A DNA stretch of 8,372 bases from a virus (taxonomy: Duplodnaviria; Heunggongvirae; Uroviricota; Caudoviricetes): the IMG/VR virus record IMGVR_UViG_2648501110_000007. One strand, 5' to 3'. How positions within the stretch are numbered: the first letter of the stretch is position 1; the number at the start of each line of letters is the position of its first letter. Both the position numbers and the translations under genes were made by a program. Positions 1 to 8,372 of this stretch are shown here, piece by piece. Under the pieces are notes generated by a model that saw only the letters and a program-made list of their open reading frames with translations, was not told where the DNA came from and searched no databases.

Positions 1-95
1 GGGGAGGAAGGAAACTACCGGATGGAAAGAGTCCCCCTAAAGCAGACTGACAGACATCACAAATCCCCGGGTGGGGATTTGTGTATAAGAGACAG
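1..95. other. Leader segment with no lambda-U-like coding frame; its last 19 nt (77-95, ATTTGTGTATAAGAGACAG) resemble a Tn5/IS50 terminal end. Possible edge of an IS4-family element or a chimeric junction.
   Basis: The U frame has an in-frame TGA at 48-50 and no recognisable U similarity upstream of 96. 79-95 matches the 3' 17 nt of the Tn5 mosaic end (AGATGTGTATAAGAGACAG); 77-95 matches the ME and the IS50 outside end at 17/19 each. The reverse complement contains TTATACACA, the DnaA-box-like core of the IS50 outside end. The interior does not match IS50 as I recall it. Confidence 0.35.
58..83. repeat. Perfect 11-bp inverted repeat CACAAATCCCC / GGGGATTTGTG separated by a 4-nt spacer (GGGT)
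   Basis: Direct reading: 58-68 is the exact reverse complement of 73-83. It overlaps the Tn5-like terminal sequence and is not followed by a T-tract on either strand. Confidence 0.8.
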
Positions 96-212
96 GCACT
101 GGCAGGGATGATTACCACGATGGTTCAGCAGGGCTATGACTATCGTCGTGATGACGATATGGCGTTATGGAGCTCTGCAGATTTGACTTATTCCATTACA
201 TACGAGATGTGA
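96..212 (+). pseudogene. U: Tail terminator protein U, C-terminal fragment only (5'-truncated)
   Basis: Translation [38 protein letters not shown] closely matches the C-terminus of lambda gpU (131 aa, from memory). Stop TGA at 210-212, 7 nt before the V start. Upstream the frame hits TGA at 48-50; the only in-frame ATG before the conserved GYDYRR block is at 108. Confidence 0.6.
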
Positions 213-219
213 GGACGAT

Positions 220-972
220 ATGCCAACACCAAATCCCCTGGCGCCGGTAAAAGGTGCCGGTACCACTCTGTGGGTTTACACCGGCAAGGGTGATGCTTAT
301 GCAAACCCGTTGTCAGATGATGACTGGCAGCGACTGGCTAAGGTGAAGGATCTGACGCCGGGCGAGATGACGGCAGAATCCTACGATGATAACTACCTGG
401 ATGATGAAGACGCGGACTGGAGCGCGACCGGGCAGGGGCAGAAGTCTGCAGGAGATACCAGTTTTACGCTGGCCTGGAAACCGGGAGAAGAAGGTCAGAA
501 AGGGCTTATAGGCTGGTTTGAAAGCGGGGATGTGCGGGCCTATAAAATCCGTTTCCCGAACGGCACGGTGGATGTGTTCCGTGGCTGGGTCAGCAGTATC
601 GGTAAGGCCGTAACGGCGAAGGAAGTGATCACCCGTACGGTGAAAGTGACCAACGTGGGTAAACCTTCCGTGGCGGAAGAACGCAGCGAAATTACGCCGG
701 CCACTGCAATTAAGGTGACACCGACATCCGGTACCGTGGAAAAAGGAAAAACAACCACCCTGACTGTTTCTTTTGAGCCGGAAAGTGCAACCGACAAGAC
801 GTTCAGAGCGGTTTCCGCCGATCCGTCAACGGGAACCATTGCTGTGAAAGATATGGTGATCACTGTGACGGGGGTTAAGGCTGGAAAAGTGAGTATCCCC
901 GTGATTTCCGGTAATGGTCAGTTTGCCACGGTAGCTGAAGTCACCGTTACTGAAGCAGGCGCTGCAGGGTAA
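220..972 (+). CDS. V: Major tail tube protein V, with C-terminal Ig-like (Big_2-type) domain
   Basis: 250-aa ORF that aligns along its length with lambda gpV (e.g. [61 protein letters not shown]). GAGGA lies 4 nt upstream of ATG 220. The C-terminal ~90 aa is Thr/Val-rich, like the lambda gpV Ig-like domain. Confidence 0.95.
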
Positions 973-985
973 ACGGAGGTCATAC

Positions 986-1417
986 ATGTTTCTGAAAACA
1001 GAACAATTTGAATATAACGGTGTGTCTGTCACGCTTTCCGAATTGTCTGCGCTGCAGCGTATTGAGCATCTTGCCCTCCTGAAACGGCGTGCAGAACAGG
1101 CAGAATCCAGCGGCAACCTGCAGGTAAGCGTGGAAGATCTCGTCAGAACCGGCGCGTTTCTGGTGGCGATGTCCCTGTGGCATAACCATCCGCAGAAAAC
1201 GGGGTCACCGTCAATGAATGAGGCTGTGATGCAGATTGAGCAGGAAGTCCTGACCACCTGGCCTGCTGATGCCATTGCCCGGGCGGAAGATGTGGTGTTG
1301 CGTCTGTCCGGGATGAGCGGGCCTGTTCATGTGGATACGGATATTACCGAAGTGGCGAAAAATAACGCGCTGACTGATGATGATTTTTCTGCGGGAAAGT
1401 CTTCGACGGCGAGCTGA
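986..1417 (+). CDS. G: Tail assembly chaperone G
   Basis: 143-aa ORF similar to lambda gpG (MFLKTE..., TLSELSALQRIEHLAL, RTGAFLVAMSLWHNHPQKT, SMNEAVMQIEQEVLTTWP). GGAGG at 975-979, 6 nt before ATG 986. Frame ends ...FSAGKSSTAS*. Confidence 0.92.
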   Translation: MFLKTEQFEYNGVSVTLSELSALQRIEHLALLKRRAEQAESSGNLQVSVEDLVRTGAFLVAMSLWHNHPQKTGSPSMNEAVMQIEQEVLTTWPADAIARAEDVVLRLSGMSGPVHVDTDITEVAKNNALTDDDFSAGKSSTAS

Positions 1418-1857
1418 ATTTTGCCCTCAGACTGGCGCGTGAGATGGGGAGGCCTGACTGGCGCGCCATGCTTGCCGGGATGACATCCACCGAATATGCC
1501 GACTGGCGACATTTTTACCGCATGCATTATTTTCACGATACCCAGCTGGATATGCATTTTTCCGGGCTGACGTACGCTGTACTCAGCCTGTTTTTTTGCG
1601 ATCCGGATATGCATCCCTCTGATTTCAGTCTGCTTGTCCCCCGGCATGAGGAAGAGCAGGTGGAGAGGCCGGATGAGGACAAAATGCTGATGCAGAAAGC
1701 GGCAGGACTTGCCGGAGGCGTCCGGTTCGGTGGGGACGGAGGGCGCGATATTTTATCGTCTGCGGATGTGGCGGATGTCATGGTGGATGATGCCGCATTA
1801 ATGATGGCTTCAGCGGGGATTTCCGGAGGTGTGAGATATGTCCCAGCCGGTTGGTGA
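986..1857 (+). CDS. T: Tail assembly chaperone G-T fusion, made by programmed -1 ribosomal frameshift at the slippery heptamer GGGAAAG (1393-1399); the T-frame portion runs 1399-1857
   Basis: G_GGA_AAG sits in the G zero frame 6 codons before the G stop. The -1 frame is open from 1399 (VFDGELNFALRLAREMGRPDWRAMLAGM...) to TGA 1855-1857 and matches lambda gpT. The ORF-track entry 1444..1857 is the 3' part of this frame. This mirrors the established lambda G/GT frameshift. Confidence 0.85.
1393..1399 (+). other. -1 programmed frameshift slippery site (GGGAAAG)
   Basis: Heptamer in the correct register (codons GGA AAG in the G frame), with the T frame open downstream. Confidence 0.8.
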
Positions 1858-4417
1858 TCTTGTTATTGACCTTAGTCTGGATGCGGTCCGTTTCGATGAG
1901 CAGATGAGCCGGGTAAGGCGTCATTTTTCAGGTCTGGATACCGACGCCAGAAAAACCGCCAGTGCTGTTGAACAGGGCCTGAGCCGCCAGGCGCTGGCTG
2001 CACAAAAAGCCGGGATTTCCGTCGGGCAGTATAAAGCGGCCATGCGAACCCTGCCCGCACAGTTTACGGATATCGCCACGCAGCTTGCCGGTGGTCAGAA
2101 TCCCTGGCTGATCCTGCTGCAACAGGGCGGTCAGGTGAAGGACTCCTTCGGCGGGATGATCCCCATGTTCAGGGGGCTTGCCGGTGCGATCACCCTGCCG
2201 ATGGTCGGGGTCACCTCGCTGGCGGTGGCGACAGGTGCGCTGGCGTACGCCTGGTACCAGGGGGATTCCACGCTTTCAGCGTTTAATAAAACCCTGGTTC
2301 TTTCCGGTAATCAGTCCGGACTGACTGCCGATCGCATGCTGACGCTCTCCAGAGCCGGACAGGCCGCAGGGCTGACGTTTAACCAGGCGAGTGAGTCACT
2401 GGCAGCCCTGGTGAATGCCGGTGTGCGTGGTGGTGAACAGTTTGATGCCATCAACCAGAGTGTCGCGCGTTTTGCTTCTGCATCCGGTGTGGAGGTGGAC
2501 AAGGTTGCAGAGGCTTTCGGAAAACTGACCACCGACCCGACGTCGGGGCTGATGGCGATGGCGCGCCAGTTCCGTAACGTGACGGCAGAGCAGATTGCGT
2601 ATGTTGCGCAGCTGCAGCGTTCCGGTGATGAGGCCGGGGCCTTACAGGCGGCGAACGATATCGCCACGAAAGGCTTTGATGAGCAGACCCGTCGCCTGAA
2701 AGAAAACATGGGGACACTGGAGACCTGGGCGGATAAAACCGGGAAGGCATTCAAATCGATGTGGGATGCCATTCTGGATATCGGTCGTCCTGAGTCCTCA
2801 GCGGATATGCTCGCCAGTGCGCAGAAGGCATTTGATGAGGCGGATAAAAAATGGCAGTGGTACCAGAGCCGGAGCCAGCGCCGCGGTAAAACCTCTTCTT
2901 TCCGGGCCAACCTTCAGGGCGCATGGAATGACCGGGAAAATGCCCGGCTGGGGCTGGCAGCGGCCACGCTGCAGTCGGATATGGAAAAAGCCGGTGAACT
3001 GGCCGCCAGGGACCGGGCCGAACGGGACGCATCACAGCTGAAGTATACCGGAGAGGCGCAGAAGGGGTATGAGCGTCTGCTGACGTCGCTGGAGAAATAT
3101 ACCGCCCGTCAGGAAGAACTGAATAAGGCCCTGAAAGACGGGAAAATCCTGCAGGCGGATTACAACACGCTGATGGCGGCGGCGAAAAAGGATTATGAAT
3201 CGACGCTGAAAAAGCCGAAGTCGTCAGGAGTCAAAGTGTCAGCCGGTGAGCGTCAGGAAGACCAGGCGCATGCTGCCCTGCTGGCGCTTGAAACCGAGCT
3301 CCGGACGCTGGAAAAACACAGCGGTGCGAATGAGAAAATCAGCCAGCAGCGTCGCGATTTATGGAAAGCGGAAAATCAGTATGCGGTCCTGAAAGAGGCA
3401 GCCACGAAACGGCAGTTATCTGAGCAGGAAAAATCCCTGCTGACCCATGAGAAAGAGACGCTGGAGTACAAACGCCAGCTGGCTGAGCTGGGAGACAAAG
3501 TTGAACACCAGAAACGGCTGAATGAGCTGGCACAGCAGGCTGCGCGGTTTGAGCAGCAGCAGGGCGCGAAGCAGGCGGCAATCAGTGCCCAGGCGCGGGG
3601 CCTCACCGACCGTCAGGCGCAGTGGGAGTCGGAAGAGCAGCACCTTCGTGACGTGTACGGTGATAATCCGGATGCGCTGGCGAAGGCCACATCTGCACTG
3701 AAGAACACCTGGTCTGCGGAGGAGCAGCTTCGTGGAAGCTGGATGGCCGGTCTGAAGTCCGGCTGGGGCGAGTGGGCAGAAAGTGCGACGGACAGTTTTT
3801 CGCAGGTTAAAAGCGTGGCCACGCAGACCTTTGACGGTATTGCACAGAATATGGCAGCGATGCTGACCGGCAGTGAGCAGAACTGGCGCAGCTTCACCCG
3901 TTCCGTGCTGTCCATGATGACAGAAATTCTGCTTAAGCAGGCAATGGTGGGGATTGTCGGGAGTATCGGTAGCGCCATTGGCGGGGCTGTTGGTGGCGGC
4001 GCATCCGCATCAGGCGGTACAGCCATTCAGGCAGCTGCGGCGAAATTCCATTTTGCGACCGGAGGATTTACGGGAACCGGCGGCAAATATGAGCCAGCGG
4101 GGATTGTTCACCGTGGTGAGTTTGTCTTCACGAAGGAGGCAACCAGCCGGATTGGCGTGGGGAATCTTTACCGGCTTATGCGCGGCTATGCCACCGGCGG
4201 TTATGTCGGTACACCGGGCAGTCTGGCGGACAGCCGGTCGCAGGCGTCCGGGAAGTTTGAGCAGAATAACCATGTGGTGATTAACAACGACGGCACGAAC
4301 GGGCAGATAGGACCACAGGCGCTGAAGGCGGTGTATGACATGGCCCGCAAGGGTGCCCGTGATGAAATTCAGACACAGATGCGTGATGGTGGCCTGTTCT
4401 CCGGAGGTGGACGATGA
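1838..4417 (+). CDS. H: Tail tape measure protein H
   Basis: 859-aa ORF. N-terminal ~300 aa and C-terminal ~350 aa are very similar to lambda gpH (e.g. PVGDLV.DLSLDA.RFDEQM.RVRRHFSG, FTRSVLSMMTEILLKQAMVGIVGSIGSAIGGAVGGGASASGG, GQIGP.ALKAVYDMARKGARDEIQTQMRDGGLFSGGGR). Central region is long, charged and helical. GGAGG lies 8 nt before ATG 1838. Start overlaps the T-frame end. Confidence 0.96.
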   Translation: MSQPVGDLVIDLSLDAVRFDEQMSRVRRHFSGLDTDARKTASAVEQGLSRQALAAQKAGISVGQYKAAMRTLPAQFTDIATQLAGGQNPWLILLQQGGQVKDSFGGMIPMFRGLAGAITLPMVGVTSLAVATGALAYAWYQGDSTLSAFNKTLVLSGNQSGLTADRMLTLSRAGQAAGLTFNQASESLAALVNAGVRGGEQFDAINQSVARFASASGVEVDKVAEAFGKLTTDPTSGLMAMARQFRNVTAEQIAYVAQLQRSGDEAGALQAANDIATKGFDEQTRRLKENMGTLETWADKTGKAFKSMWDAILDIGRPESSADMLASAQKAFDEADKKWQWYQSRSQRRGKTSSFRANLQGAWNDRENARLGLAAATLQSDMEKAGELAARDRAERDASQLKYTGEAQKGYERLLTSLEKYTARQEELNKALKDGKILQADYNTLMAAAKKDYESTLKKPKSSGVKVSAGERQEDQAHAALLALETELRTLEKHSGANEKISQQRRDLWKAENQYAVLKEAATKRQLSEQEKSLLTHEKETLEYKRQLAELGDKVEHQKRLNELAQQAARFEQQQGAKQAAISAQARGLTDRQAQWESEEQHLRDVYGDNPDALAKATSALKNTWSAEEQLRGSWMAGLKSGWGEWAESATDSFSQVKSVATQTFDGIAQNMAAMLTGSEQNWRSFTRSVLSMMTEILLKQAMVGIVGSIGSAIGGAVGGGASASGGTAIQAAAAKFHFATGGFTGTGGKYEPAGIVHRGEFVFTKEATSRIGVGNLYRLMRGYATGGYVGTPGSLADSRSQASGKFEQNNHVVINNDGTNGQIGPQALKAVYDMARKGARDEIQTQMRDGGLFSGGGR

Positions 4418-4743
4418 AAACCTTCCGCTGGAAAGTGAAACCCGGGATGGATGTGACATCGGCCCCTTCCGTAAGAAAGGTGCGCTTTGGTGATGGCTAT
4501 TCCCAGCGAGCGCCTGCCGGGCTGAATGCCAACCTGAAAACGTACAGCGTGACGCTTTCTGTCCCCCGCGAGGAGGCCACGGCACTGGAGTCGTTTCTGG
4601 AAGAGCACGGGGGCTGGAAAGCCTTTCTGTGGACGCCGCCTTATGACTGGCGGCAGATAAAGGTGACCTGCGCAAAATGGACATCGCGGGTCAGTATGCT
4701 ACGTGTTGAGTTCAGCGCAGAGTTTGAACAGGTGGTGAACTGA
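4414..4743 (+). CDS. M: Tail tip assembly protein M
   Basis: 109-aa ORF nearly identical to lambda gpM (MKTFRWKVKPGMDV...RVEFSAEFEQVVN). ATGA overlap with the H stop. Confidence 0.95.
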   Translation: MKTFRWKVKPGMDVTSAPSVRKVRFGDGYSQRAPAGLNANLKTYSVTLSVPREEATALESFLEEHGGWKAFLWTPPYDWRQIKVTCAKWTSRVSMLRVEFSAEFEQVVN

Positions 4744-5441
4744 TGCAGGATATCCGGCAGGAAACACTGAATGAATGCACCCGTGCGGAGCAGTCGGCCA
4801 GCGTGGTGCTCTGGGAAATCGACCTGACAGAGGTCGGTGGAGAACGTTATTTTTTCTGTAATGAGCAGAACGAAAAAGGTGAGCCGGTCACCTGGCAGGG
4901 GCGACAGTATCAGCCGTATCCCATTCAGGGGAGCGGTTTTGAACTGAATGGCAAAGGCACCAGTACGCGCCCCACGCTGACGGTTTCTAACCTGTACGGT
5001 ATGGTCACCGGGATGGCGGAAGATATGCAGAGTCTGGTCGGCGGAACGGTGGTCCGGCGTAAGGTTTACGCCCGTTTTCTGGATGCGGTGAACTTCGTCA
5101 ACGGAAACAGTTACGCCGATCCGGAGCAGGAGGTGATCAGCCGCTGGCGCATCGAGCAGTGCAGCGAACTGAGCGCGGTGAGTGCCTCTTTTGTACTGTC
5201 CACGCCGACGGAAACGGACGGTGCCGTTTTTCCGGGGCGCATCATGCTGGCCAACACCTGCACCTGGACCTATCGCGGTGACGAGTGCGGTTATCACGGT
5301 CCGGCGGTCGCGGATGAATATGATCAGCCGACGTCCGATATCACGAAGGATAAATGCAGCAAATGCCTGAGCGGCTGTAAGTTTCGCAATAACGTCGGCA
5401 ACTTTGGCGGCTTCCTTTCCATTAACAAACTTTCGCAGTGA
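4743..5441 (+). CDS. L: Tail tip assembly protein L (C-terminal cysteine cluster, Fe-S binding)
   Basis: 232-aa ORF nearly identical to lambda gpL. TGATG overlap with the M stop. C-terminal Cys pattern C-x-W-x5-E-C ... C-x2-C-x3-C, which in lambda gpL ligates an iron-sulfur cluster. Confidence 0.95.
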   Translation: MQDIRQETLNECTRAEQSASVVLWEIDLTEVGGERYFFCNEQNEKGEPVTWQGRQYQPYPIQGSGFELNGKGTSTRPTLTVSNLYGMVTGMAEDMQSLVGGTVVRRKVYARFLDAVNFVNGNSYADPEQEVISRWRIEQCSELSAVSASFVLSTPTETDGAVFPGRIMLANTCTWTYRGDECGYHGPAVADEYDQPTSDITKDKCSKCLSGCKFRNNVGNFGGFLSINKLSQ

Positions 5442-5446
5442 ATCCC

Positions 5447-6190
5447 ATGACAGAGACAGAATCAGCGATTCTGGCGCACGCCCGGCGATGTGCGCCAGCG
5501 GAGTCGTGCGGCTTCGTGGTGAGAACACCGGAGGGGGAAAGATATTTTCCCTGCGTGAATATCTCTGGTGAGCCGGAGGCGTATTTCCGGATGTCGCCGG
5601 AGGACTGGCTGAGTGCAGAAATGCAGGGAGAGATTGTGGCGCTGGTCCACAGCCACCCCGGTGGTCTGCCCTGGCTGAGTGAGGCCGACCGGCGGCTGCA
5701 GGTGCAGAGTGATTTGCCGTGGTGGCTGGTCTGCCGGGGGGCGATTCATAAATTCCGCTGTGTGCCGCATCTCACCGGGCGGCGCTTTGAGCACGGGGTG
5801 ACGGACTGTTACACGCTGTTCCGGGACGCTTACCATCTGGCGGGAATTGAGATGCCGGATTTTCATCGCGGGGATGACTGGTGGCGTCACGGCCAGAATC
5901 TCTATCTGGATAATATGGAGGCAACGGGGTTGTATCAGGTGCCGTTGTCAGCGGCCCAGCCGGGCGATGTGCTGCTGTGCTGTTTTGGTTCATCGGTGCC
6001 GAATCATGCCGCCATTTACTGTGGCGACGGCGAGCTGCTGCACCATATTCCTGAACAACTGAGTAAACGAGAGAGGTACACCGACAAATGGCAGCGACGC
6101 ACACACTCCCTCTGGCGTCACCGGGCATGGCACGCATCTGCCTTTACGGGGATTTGCAACGATTTGGTCGCCGTATCGACCTTCGTGTGA
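5447..6190 (+). CDS. K: Tail tip assembly protein K, two-domain: N-terminal JAB/MPN (JAMM) domain plus C-terminal NlpC/P60-like domain. Start uncertain (GTG 5438, ATG 5447, or internal ATG 5591 as in the classical lambda annotation).
   Basis: ORF is open from the L stop to 6190. JAMM motif H-S-H-x7-S-x2-D at 5648-5686 with an upstream E-x-C-G (5501-5512). NlpC/P60-like Cys in GVTDCYTLF (5807-5809) and His in NHAAIYCG. Internal ATG 5591 has GGAGG 11 nt upstream and corresponds to the classical 199-aa lambda K start. Confidence 0.85.
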   Translation: MTETESAILAHARRCAPAESCGFVVRTPEGERYFPCVNISGEPEAYFRMSPEDWLSAEMQGEIVALVHSHPGGLPWLSEADRRLQVQSDLPWWLVCRGAIHKFRCVPHLTGRRFEHGVTDCYTLFRDAYHLAGIEMPDFHRGDDWWRHGQNLYLDNMEATGLYQVPLSAAQPGDVLLCCFGSSVPNHAAIYCGDGELLHHIPEQLSKRERYTDKWQRRTHSLWRHRAWHASAFTGICNDLVAVSTFV

Positions 6191-6735
6191 AAACGGGGGC
6201 TGAAGCCATCCGGGCACTGGCCACACAGCTCCCGGTGTTTCGTCAGAAACTGAATGAGGGCTGGTATCAGGTGCGCATTGCCGGGCGTGATGCAGGCGAA
6301 AACGAATTATCTGCCCGTCTTAATGAGCCGCTGGCAAATGGTGCCGTGATCCACATCGTACCGCGTCTGGCGGGAGCTAAAAGTGGCGGTGTGTTTCAGG
6401 TGGTGCTTGGGGCGGCGCTGATTGCGGTGGCATGGTGGAACCCTGTGGGCTGGCTGGGGGCCGCGGCTGTATCGGGCATGTATGCGGCAGGGGCCAGTAT
6501 GATCCTGGGCGGAGTGGCGCAGATGCTGGCACCGAAAGCCAGGACGCCCACGGCAGCCAGTACAGATAACGGCAAACAGAACACCTATTTCTCCTCACTG
6601 GATAACATGGTTGCCCAGGGCAATGTTCTGCCTGTTCTGTACGGTGAAATGCGCGTGGGGTCACGTGTGGTTTCTCAGGAGATCAGCACGGCAGACGAAG
6701 GGGATGGTGGTCAGGTTGTGGTGATTGGTCGCTGA
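6088..6735 (+). CDS. I: Tail tip assembly protein I (N-terminal ubiquitin-like/beta-grasp domain)
   Basis: 215-aa ORF similar to lambda gpI at both ends (MAATHTLPLASPGMARICLYGDLQRFGRRIDLRV... and ...NGKQNTYFSSLDNMVAQGNVLPVLYGEMRVGSRVVSQEISTADEGDGGQVVVIGR). Starts 103 nt inside the 3' end of K in another frame, as in lambda. GAGAGG upstream. Confidence 0.92.
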   Translation: MAATHTLPLASPGMARICLYGDLQRFGRRIDLRVKTGAEAIRALATQLPVFRQKLNEGWYQVRIAGRDAGENELSARLNEPLANGAVIHIVPRLAGAKSGGVFQVVLGAALIAVAWWNPVGWLGAAAVSGMYAAGASMILGGVAQMLAPKARTPTAASTDNGKQNTYFSSLDNMVAQGNVLPVLYGEMRVGSRVVSQEISTADEGDGGQVVVIGR

Positions 6736-6753
6736 TGCAAAATGTTTTATGTG

Positions 6754-6780
6754 AAACCGCCTCCGGGCGGTTTTATCGTT
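6754..6780 (+). terminator. Terminator-like hairpin in the I-J intergenic spacer: AAACCGCC-TCCG-GGCGGTTT followed by TTTTATCGTTT
   Basis: Direct reading: 5-bp GC stem (CCGCC/GGCGG) extended by A:T pairs, 4-nt loop, T-rich tail. It lies between the I stop (6735) and the J Shine-Dalgarno/ATG (6796). The stem is short, so as a terminator it would be weak. Confidence 0.3.
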
Positions 6781-6795
6781 TATGGAGCGTGAGGA

Positions 6796-8372
6796 ATGGG
6801 TAAAGGCAGCAGTAAGGGGCATACCCCGCGCGAAGCGAAGGACAACCTGAAGTCCACGCAGCTGCTGAGTGTGATCGATGCCATCAGCGAAGGGCCGGTT
6901 GAAGGTCCGGTGGATGGATTAAAAAGCGTGCTGCTGAACAGTACGCCGGTGCTGGACAGTGAGGGGAATACCAATATATCCGGCGTCACGGTGGTGTTCC
7001 GGGCCGGTGAGCAGGAGCAGACACCGCCGGAGGGATTTGAATCCTCCGGCTCCGAGACGGTGCTCGGTACAGAAGTGAAATATGACACGCCGATCACCCG
7101 CGCCATCACGTCGGCAAACATCGACCGACTGCGCCTGACCTTCGGTGTGCAGGCACTGGTGGAAACCACCTCAAAGGGGGACCGGAATCCGTCGGAAGTT
7201 CGCCTGCTGGTTCAGATACAGCGTAATGGTGGCTGGGTGACGGAAAAAGACATCACCATTAAGGGCAAAACCACCTCGCAGTATCTGGCCTCGGTGGTGG
7301 TGGATAACCTGCCGCCGCGCCCGTTTAATATCCGGATGCGCAGAATGACGCCGGACAGCACCACAGACCAGCTGCAGAACAAAACGCTCTGGTCGTCATA
7401 CACCGAAATCATCGATGTGAAACAGGGCTACCCGAACACGGCACTGGTCGGCGTAAAGGTGGATTCGGAGCAGTTCGGCAGCCAGCAGGTGAGCCGTAAT
7501 TATCATCTTCGCGGGCGTATTCTGCAGGTGCCGTCGAACTATAACCCGCAGACGCGGCAATACAGCGGTATCTGGGACGGAACGTTAAAACCGGCATACA
7601 GCAACAACCCGGCCTGGTGTCTGTGGGATATGCTGACCCACCCGCGCTACGGCATGGGGAAACGTCTTGGTGCGGCGGATGTGGATAAATGGGCGCTGTA
7701 TGTCATCGGCCAGTACTGCGACCAGTCGGTGCCGGACGGCTTTGGCGGCACGGAGCCGCGCATTACCTGTAATGCGTACCTGACCACACAGCGTAAGGCG
7801 TGGGATGTGCTCAGTGATTTCTGCTCGGCGATGCGCTGTATGCCGGTATGGAACGGGCAGACGCTGACGTTCGTGCAGGACCGACCATCAGATAAGGTGT
7901 GGACCTATAACCGCAGTAATGTGGTGATGCCGGATGATGGTGCGCCGTTCCGCTACAGCTTCAGCGCCCTGAAGGACCGCCATAATGCCGTTGAGGTGAA
8001 CTGGATTGACCCGAATAACGGCTGGGAGACGGCGACAGAGCTTGTTGAAGATACGCAGGCCATTGCCCGTTACGGCCGTAATGTCACGAAGATGGATGCC
8101 TTTGGTTGTACCAGTCGGGGGCAGGCACACCGAGCCGGGCTGTGGCTGATTAAAACGGAACTGCTGGAAACGCAGACCGTGGATTTCAGCGTGGGCGCAG
8201 AAGGGCTTCGCCATGTGCCGGGCGATGTTATTGAAATCTGCGATGATGACTATGCCGGTATCAGCATCGGTGGTCGCGTGCTGGCGGTGAACAGCCAGAC
8301 CCGGACGCTGACGCTCGACCGTGAAATCACGCTGCCATCCTCCGGCACCACGCTGATAAGCCTGGTTGACGG
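6796..8372 (+). CDS. J: Tail tip / central tail fibre protein J (host specificity), N-terminal 525 codons; 3'-partial, continues past window end
   Basis: Frame is open from ATG 6796 to the window end. Translation MGKGSSKGHTPREAKDNLKSTQLLSVIDAISEGP...LQVPSNYNPQTRQYSGIWDG...VDFSVGAEGLRHVPGDVIEICDDDYAGIS... is near-identical to the lambda gpJ N-terminus. GAGG lies 5 nt upstream of the ATG. Missing from the ORF track because there is no stop in the window. Confidence 0.95.
   Translation, partial: MGKGSSKGHTPREAKDNLKSTQLLSVIDAISEGPVEGPVDGLKSVLLNSTPVLDSEGNTNISGVTVVFRAGEQEQTPPEGFESSGSETVLGTEVKYDTPITRAITSANIDRLRLTFGVQALVETTSKGDRNPSEVRLLVQIQRNGGWVTEKDITIKGKTTSQYLASVVVDNLPPRPFNIRMRRMTPDSTTDQLQNKTLWSSYTEIIDVKQGYPNTALVGVKVDSEQFGSQQVSRNYHLRGRILQVPSNYNPQTRQYSGIWDGTLKPAYSNNPAWCLWDMLTHPRYGMGKRLGAADVDKWALYVIGQYCDQSVPDGFGGTEPRITCNAYLTTQRKAWDVLSDFCSAMRCMPVWNGQTLTFVQDRPSDKVWTYNRSNVVMPDDGAPFRYSFSALKDRHNAVEVNWIDPNNGWETATELVEDTQAIARYGRNVTKMDAFGCTSRGQAHRAGLWLIKTELLETQTVDFSVGAEGLRHVPGDVIEICDDDYAGISIGGRVLAVNSQTRTLTLDREITLPSSGTTLISLVD

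Follow-up and report, generated by a model that had tools for sequence, protein, structure and literature searches.

We conclude with high confidence that the window analysed here, a stretch of 8,372 nucleotides of viral DNA (Caudoviricetes), carries, as part of a lambdoid prophage, a copy of the site at which phage lambda makes its programmed -1 ribosomal frameshift from G to GT. The G/GT site is already known as a textbook case of ratio-setting by low-level frameshifting, and this copy adds nothing new biologically; the value of the feature is mainly one of annotation. What we read from the sequence itself is the geometry of the site, the homology of both halves of the fusion, the conservation of the site at the nucleotide level and the apparent lack of an independent start for T.

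The site lies in a tail module whose gene order (V-G-T-H-M-L-K-I-J) and spacing are those of lambda (NC_001416, 8.7-17.1 kb). The genes of the window are the following:

96-212, plus strand: C-terminal end of U, last 39 codons only.
220..972, plus strand: V, major tail tube protein, by Pfam Phage_TTP_12 (1.3e-69) and Big_2 and by lambda-like gene order.
986..1417, plus strand: G, tail assembly chaperone, the zero-frame product of 143 aa, from the ORF list and PF06894 Phage_TAC_2 (5.9e-50).
1399..1857, plus strand: T segment, 152 codons that would be read after the slip, by PF06223 Phage_tail_T (1e-14), with its stop at 1855-1857.
1838..4417, plus strand: H, tape measure protein, by Pfam TMP_2 (9e-69) and Tape_meas_lam_C and by lambda-like gene order.
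4414-4743, plus strand: M, from the ORF list.
4743-5441, plus strand: L, from the ORF list.
5438/5447-6190, plus strand: K, from the ORF list.
6088-6735, plus strand: I, from the ORF list.
Right end of the window, plus strand: first part of J, which runs past the window edge.

The overlapping G/T pair of ORFs thus sits between the major tail tube gene V and the tape measure gene H, the first 20 nt of which overlap the end of T. A Shine-Dalgarno scan placed a GGAGG 11 nt 5′ of the G ATG. The nearest phage records to the 900-1950 segment are Stx2a-converting phages (95%), and among complete E. coli genomes the nearest are at about 97% over 96-8372. Rfam returned two matches over the whole window, both at chance level (E 0.2-0.5, far under the gathering score) and neither of them near the slip site. 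The K/I overlap was considered as a second frameshift, since I lies in the -1 frame with respect to K and one 399-position PHROG covers both; it was rejected because the overlap holds no slippery motif in register and I has a GAGG of its own.

Two features define the site:

1393..1399, plus strand: slippery heptamer G_GGA_AAG, in the G register, identical to that of lambda and conserved.
1384..1417, plus strand: stretch of 34 nt open in both frames, from a walk through the frames.

With G starting at 986, base 1393 is a third codon base, and the zero frame runs GC[G GGA AAG] TCT TCG ACG GCG AGC TGA, which gives the heptamer the X_XXY_YYZ phasing. Its AAG (1397-1399) stands 6 codons 5′ of the G stop at 1415-1417, the two being separated by five sense codons (S S T A S). 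A TGA at 1381-1383 blocks the -1 frame, which is then open from 1384 to the stop at 1855-1857. Both frames are open together over 1384-1417 only; therefore, a productive shift must fall there, and the heptamer is inside. The offset of the T frame, (1399-986) mod 3, equals 2, and the fusion written as join(986..1399,1399..1857) amounts to 138 + 152 = 290 aa. The ATG-initiated ORF 1444..1857 (137 aa) of the mechanical ORF list shares its frame with the post-slip reading. A first-pass annotation had described GGGAAAG in register with G, six codons before the G stop, a -1 frame open to 1857 and a fusion of ~290 aa; each of these particulars agrees with the coordinates found here. Shifts of +1 or -2 were also considered and rejected; the +1 frame runs on for no more than 8 codons after the G stop before it closes.

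The heptamer taken by itself was not used as evidence, because the window holds two copies of GGGAAAG against 1.19 expected, and at least two copies occurred in 64 of 200 shuffles; register, position and conservation were used instead. The other copy, at 5535, does not fall in the register of K. All plus-strand genes of the window together contain four XXXYYYZ heptamers in register, and a long -1 ORF (152 codons) follows only the one in G, the other three running into a stop after 1, 3 and 15 codons. What stands above chance is the combination of register with a long -1 ORF, rather than the bare heptamer, and the site is also conserved in the same column across divergent relatives.

Both halves of the putative fusion are homologous to their lambda counterparts. 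G shares 67% identity with lambda gpG, and the -1 product, from its first residue on, is 71% identical to lambda T. When the DNA is aligned with that of lambda, the linker at the C-terminal end of G is divergent and gapped, and near-identity sets in exactly from TTTCTGCGGGAAAG onward, a switch that we read as the signature expected when selection passes over to the -1 frame at the point of slippage. Base for base, the heptamer and the nucleotides on either side of it match the experimentally established G_GGA_AAG site of lambda. PHROG 32165 ("minor tail protein", 290 positions) is matched contiguously, by G at its positions 1-142 (6e-68) and then by the -1 product at 140-290 (7e-107); therefore, the junction of the fusion family falls exactly at the slip site. 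The alignment with lambda G-T had been suggested as a check on the first-pass annotation, and its outcome, together with the Phage_tail_T match (1e-14), bears out both the gpT-like nature of the extension and the correspondence with the lambda site.

Conservation among relatives follows the same pattern. Of the close relatives for which the data are complete, 92 of 92 have GGGAAAG in register. Over a wider set of 273 related loci, T is in the -1 frame in 272 and A_AAG occupies the same column in 269, as part of GGAAAAG (171 loci), GGGAAAG (94), AAAAAAG (2), AGAAAAG (1) or GGCAAAG (1); three further loci carry G_GGA_AAA directly before the stop. The sole exception to the -1 arrangement, L048, has an intact heptamer and a 1-nt deletion in T, 115 nt downstream, so that copies can evidently decay while the heptamer persists. 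A divergent comparison set of 10 phage records has a motif at the same place in 10/10: GGGAAAG in phage 21, A_AAA_AAG in VT1-Sakai and ASU11, and G_GAA_AAG in the remaining seven (N15, mEp043, Kp4865-4, phi80, mEp460, cdtI and Providencia PSTCR8lys). A-A-A-G is invariant at columns 10-13 of the ungapped alignment, and the A_AAG column is likewise invariant in 39 distinct sequences from divergent clades. The position of the slip site is thus conserved across homologues, although the linker that surrounds it diverges. The GenBank record of N15 has a misc_feature at the homologous position, "slippery sequence for -1 translational frameshift", and the record of phage 21 has a joined GT CDS. A search of genome contigs for taxonomic breadth returned mostly exact lambda DNA in unrelated assemblies, that is, contamination, and is uninformative for conservation.

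The main question for annotation concerns the ORF that the mechanical list reports inside T and the codon that opens it:

1444..1446, plus strand: ATG opening the mechanical ORF 1444..1857, best read as an internal Met of GT.

According to one alternative, T would be a standalone gene of 137 aa started at this ATG, and the heptamer would be incidental. The ORF does exist, PGAP labels the equivalent ATG ORF "phage tail assembly protein T" in the close relative E. coli Z1323HEC0016, and the lambda RefSeq record keeps T as a separate CDS. We nevertheless regard a standalone T as very improbable. In the -1 frame the protein sequence is already conserved from the slip site on, 15 codons upstream of ATG1444, and these 15 codons encode VFDGELNFALRLARE, which is conserved across relatives; the matches to Phage_tail_T and to the PHROG likewise begin 5′ of Met1444. 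In six of 11 diverse relatives the column of Met1444 holds Phe. The 22 nt before ATG1444 contain no Shine-Dalgarno motif, whereas G, H and M each carry GGAGG at the usual distance. Other starts do not offer themselves: ATG, GTG and TTG are all absent from the -1 frame between 1384 and 1443, and the GTG formed at the slip site, which was the historical start of T in lambda, is GTC here. In lambda itself, according to experiments (Levin 1993, via PMC5009743 and PMC3296357), the T sequence is made only as GT.

Because of the conservation upstream in the -1 frame, the change of Met to Phe in 6/11 relatives, the lack of a Shine-Dalgarno motif before ATG1444 and the contiguous match to PHROG 32165, 1444..1857 is best read as not being a standalone gene, T probably being produced solely as the C-terminal portion of the 290-aa GT. 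The first-pass annotation had come to the same view of this ORF, and no independent start is apparent in the sequence. The correct gene model would then be G (986..1417) plus GT, join(986..1399,1399..1857), without a standalone 137-aa "T". Since PGAP and the lambda RefSeq record both give T a separate CDS, automated tracks will keep showing this artefact.

The mechanism that we propose is that of lambda. Most ribosomes on G would stop at 1415-1417 and yield the 143-aa chaperone gpG, and a small fraction would slip back one base on G_GGA_AAG (1393-1399), the P-site tRNA-Gly re-pairing from GGA to GGG and the A-site tRNA-Lys from AAG to AAA. The slipped ribosomes would read the -1 frame to 1857 and produce GT, a fusion of 290 aa. 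As with the homologous proteins of lambda, the G part would bind the tape measure protein H and the T part would recruit V, the tail tube protein; the frequency of slipping would set a G:GT ratio of ~30:1, needed for tail assembly. The slip itself, its rate of ~4% and the roles as chaperones are here inferred from lambda.

For lambda, this scheme is established in the literature. The site was established by Levin 1993 (as cited in PMC5009743, PMC3296357 and PMC7618472). Its -1 frameshift gives gpG:gpGT at ~30:1, with G binding H and T binding V (PMC5009743), and both products are needed for tail assembly (Xu 2013, 2014, via PMC5009743). Virions contain neither gpG nor gpGT, and a changed ratio blocks tail assembly (PMC5009743, PMC3296357, PMC7618472). 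G_GGA_AAG is described as intrinsically highly shift-prone in E. coli (PMC5009743). The shift at GGGAAAG is put at ~4% and depends on tRNA-Lys modification (PMC3296357, PMC7618472), namely on the mnm5s2U34 of the single tRNA-Lys (PMC5009743, PMC3296357, PMC7618472). The primary work on the lambda system (Levin, Hendrix & Casjens 1993; Xu, Hendrix & Duda 2004, 2013, 2014; Maynard 2012) is given here as these papers report it.

Slippage of the transcript rather than of the ribosome, i.e., stuttering of the RNA polymerase, would lead to a -1 product of equal size, and some phages and IS elements take this route, as described in a review (PMC5009743). The longest homopolymer at the site is only 3 nt (GGG, AAA). 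Productive transcriptional slippage requires long runs of A or T. What the relatives conserve is the codon register A_AAG and not the length of a run, and in lambda the shift is dependent on tRNA-Lys modification (PMC3296357). We consider transcriptional slippage extremely unlikely.

It is also conceivable that the rate of the -1 shift is tuned by a conserved mRNA structure 5-7 nt downstream of the heptamer, for which the window offers one candidate:

1407..1477, plus strand: candidate mRNA stem-loop, uncertain, with an outer stem 1407-1414/1470-1477 and inner stems 1433-1448/1453-1468.

In a fold of the 81 nt after the heptamer, the predicted stem-loop begins 7 nt 3′ of it, and such spacing is typical for 3′ stimulators by the spacer range given in a review (PMC5009743). 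The fold of the window has a minimum free energy of -35.1 kcal/mol and z -2.2 against dinucleotide shuffles; lambda folds alike, with z -3.2. Among 27 representatives, the same hairpin topology was predicted in the lambda-type and N15/phi80-type clades. On the same kind of shuffle, lambda-type members score z of about -1 to -3.5 and N15/phi80-type members about -1.8 to -4.7, most of the latter falling between -3.0 and -4.7, compared with a mean of -0.4 in control windows. RNAalifold and pair counts (11 + 39 sequences) revealed several pairs that change on both sides, often via synonymous changes in the 3′ arm; for example, a G-C becomes A-U at columns 22/90 via a synonymous GCC-to-GCT.

Against this, a null of synonymous recodings with the protein fixed leaves the window at z -1.1, which is not significant, 18 of 150 recodings folding as well. 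The same null gives the N15-type relatives a moderately significant z of about -1.5 to -3.8. Among the 27 representatives, the mEp460/cdtI and Providencia-type clades lack the hairpin, though they keep the slip site. Covariation measures robust to phylogeny are borderline (6/500 and 41/500), and per-codon synonymous identity shows no special conservation at the synonymous sites of the 3′ arm. The self-complementarity comes largely from the conserved peptide LAR...RAML. According to the review (PMC5009743), the lambda G/GT site has no stimulatory signals. We did not adopt the hairpin because it is suggestive in N15-type phages yet not significant for this window.

It is doubtful, although still conceivable, that in the lambda/N15/phi80 group a three-tier stem-loop tunes the slip and is partly kept by synonymous changes in MLAGM that compensate amino-acid changes of the 5′ arm. 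If this were true, the G/GT frameshift of these phages would not be free of a stimulator as is currently stated. A possible modulation of the rate by the hairpin, which is stronger in the N15-type relatives, is the sole point here for recoding specialists.

The state of the prophage bears on whether the site is in use. Window positions 1-95 lie outside the tail module and end in GTGTATAAGAGACAG, which we take to be a Tn5-end-like terminal repeat. These 95 nt match at 100% a sequence that occurs in more than 1,400 E. coli genomes and also in many plasmids of Escherichia, Shigella and Salmonella; in O157:H7 this sequence adjoins transposase genes of the IS4/Tn5 family. We read window 1-95 as the end of an IS4/Tn5-family element that interrupts U at 95/96. 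Homology to U begins at 96, and the U frame, followed further upstream, meets a stop; therefore, U is interrupted or truncated. The prophage may have lost the ability to build tails, and its frameshift site may be out of use at present.

The slip site could be intact mechanically and idle biologically, a heptamer inherited in a defective prophage and not currently selected. The end of the IS4/Tn5-family element abuts only the last 39 codons of the tail-terminator gene U, and the relative L048 shows a decayed T next to an intact heptamer. On the other hand, the reading frames of V, G, T, H, M, L, K and I show no interruption and that of J stays open up to the window edge, and a recent IS insertion would alter neither the identity of the frameshift element nor its working once transcribed. 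Recombination with incoming phages can also rescue intact modules from defective prophages. We regard an idle site as a possibility to be taken seriously, although the less probable one, and continue to describe the locus as a copy of the lambda frameshift site.

Among known systems, lambda is the closest. The two loci have the identical G_GGA_AAG, in both cases 6 codons before the G stop and leading into the -1 frame, and they have in common the V-G-T-H order, the protein families and the flanking nucleotides. They differ in the C-terminal linker of G, which is divergent and 3 aa longer here; in the stretch open in both frames, 34 nt here and 64 nt in lambda; in the first -1 codon, GTC here and GTG in lambda; and in the tail of T, 8 aa longer here, GT being 290 aa against 279 aa (the lambda length was counted from alignments).

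N15 (gp14/gp15), phi80, mEp043 and cdtI have the same Phage_TAC_2/Phage_tail_T pair, a -1 shift and a slip site in the same column. Their G_GAA_AAG, however, departs from the strict XXXYYYZ pattern, and perfect re-pairing is limited to the A-site A_AAG; they have Phe at the position of the Met of ATG1444, and the predicted downstream hairpin is stronger in them.

The dnaX gene of E. coli (tau/gamma, A_AAA_AAG) is also a bacterial case of a -1 slip at an A_AAG A-site codon, with a single tRNA-Lys (mnm5s2UUU) and two products in a fixed ratio, as set out in the review (PMC5009743). It differs in that dnaX shifts at ~50-80% and requires an upstream Shine-Dalgarno-like element and a 3′ stem-loop, and in that the shifted product is the shorter one. 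At the G/GT site an upstream Shine-Dalgarno-like element of the dnaX kind is absent, and the 3′ stimulator is a candidate only.

Finally, the tail chaperones of HK97, P2 (E/E′), Mu (-2), TP901-1, SPP1 and mycobacteriophages belong to protein families that are unrelated or very distant, with different slip sequences and sometimes a different direction of the shift (+1 or -2). They nevertheless have in common with the locus described here the architecture of two overlapping ORFs, likewise placed between the tail tube and tape measure genes and joined by a low-level shift, as the review presents them (PMC5009743; further papers are PMC4493119 and PMC6316719).

The heptamer GGGAAAG (G_GGA_AAG, window 1393-1399), at which the G frame would slip by -1 to give the GT fusion, is replaced by variants in some of the related G/GT loci compared with the window: G_GGA_AAA, with TAG directly 3′, in L110-L112, G_GCA_AAG in L241 and A_GAA_AAG in L247. 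The A-site A_AAR is the only element common to all these slip motifs, variants included, which suggests that the conserved core of the site is slippage of the A-site tRNA-Lys. The close relative L048 keeps GGGAAAG intact (at L048 2908), and its T segment, i.e., the -1 frame part of GT, has lost one base (GGCGACA to GGCACA) approximately 115 nt 3′ of the heptamer, leaving the remaining T out of frame. Either this copy is decaying or the assembly contains an error.

Annotation of T in public records is inconsistent. It is a separate CDS in the lambda RefSeq record NC_001416 (L001 1416-1850) and, by PGAP, in NZ_CP148382 (L002 2849-3262), starting at a GTG at the slip site in the former and at an internal ATG in the latter; for N15 and for phage 21, it is the frameshift product itself that is annotated.

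Folding predicts a three-tier stem-loop at window 1407-1477, 5-7 nt 3′ of the slip site, which displays some compensatory changes through synonymous codons. This candidate hairpin is strongest among N15-type loci (L096, L224, L243, L247), where it was significant against synonymous recoding (z about -1.5 to -3.8); in the window the same comparison was not significant (z -1.1). Separately, in both the window and its close relatives, a control segment within T, 120 nt after the slip site (window ~1519-1602), has a more stable fold than its synonymous recodings (z about -3), a signal larger than that of the candidate hairpin. It could reflect chance among 81 control tests, or local structure.

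The scan of genome contigs also returned L084-L091, together with the fragments L093 and L094, which match phage lambda at 100% identity across as much as 3.9 kb. They carry the labels Neobacillus, Oceanobacillus, Pseudomonas, Shewanella, Kitasatospora, Chromatium and a Chromatiales MAG, and several are ~48.4-48.5 kb long, the size of the lambda genome, with low-coverage labels. They look like lambda DNA contamination of those assemblies.

The left end of the window has the following features:
1-95, IS4/Tn5-family insertion sequence terminus, junction at 95/96
61-80, small hairpin AAATCCCC/GGGGATTT in this end
81-95, terminal repeat ...GTGTATAAGAGACAG in this end, which we take to be Tn5-end-like
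96-212, remnant (last 39 codons) of the tail-terminator gene U, adjoining the insertion sequence end

Over 1,400 E. coli genomes contain identical copies of 1-95, as do plasmids of Escherichia, Shigella and Salmonella. Since this end abuts the last 39 U codons, U is interrupted or truncated, and the prophage is probably tail-defective.

In the right half of the window, K and I overlap:
5438/5447-6190, K ORF, 247-250 aa
6088-6190, K/I overlap, 103 nt, I in the -1 frame relative to K

No in-register slippery motif was found in this overlap and I has GAGG upstream; a second programmed frameshift here is therefore unlikely. PHROG 28576 (399 positions, unknown function) matches K at 1-204 and I at 187-393, as if a K-I fusion had been annotated in some records. 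K is 247 aa by PGAP in a relative, whereas the lambda RefSeq K (L001 5577-6176) has only 199 aa, against 247-250 aa in the window, and ~148 nt 3′ of L are left unannotated before it; the start in the lambda record is probably an internal codon. In lambda, as in the window, I overlaps K and lies in the -1 frame relative to it.
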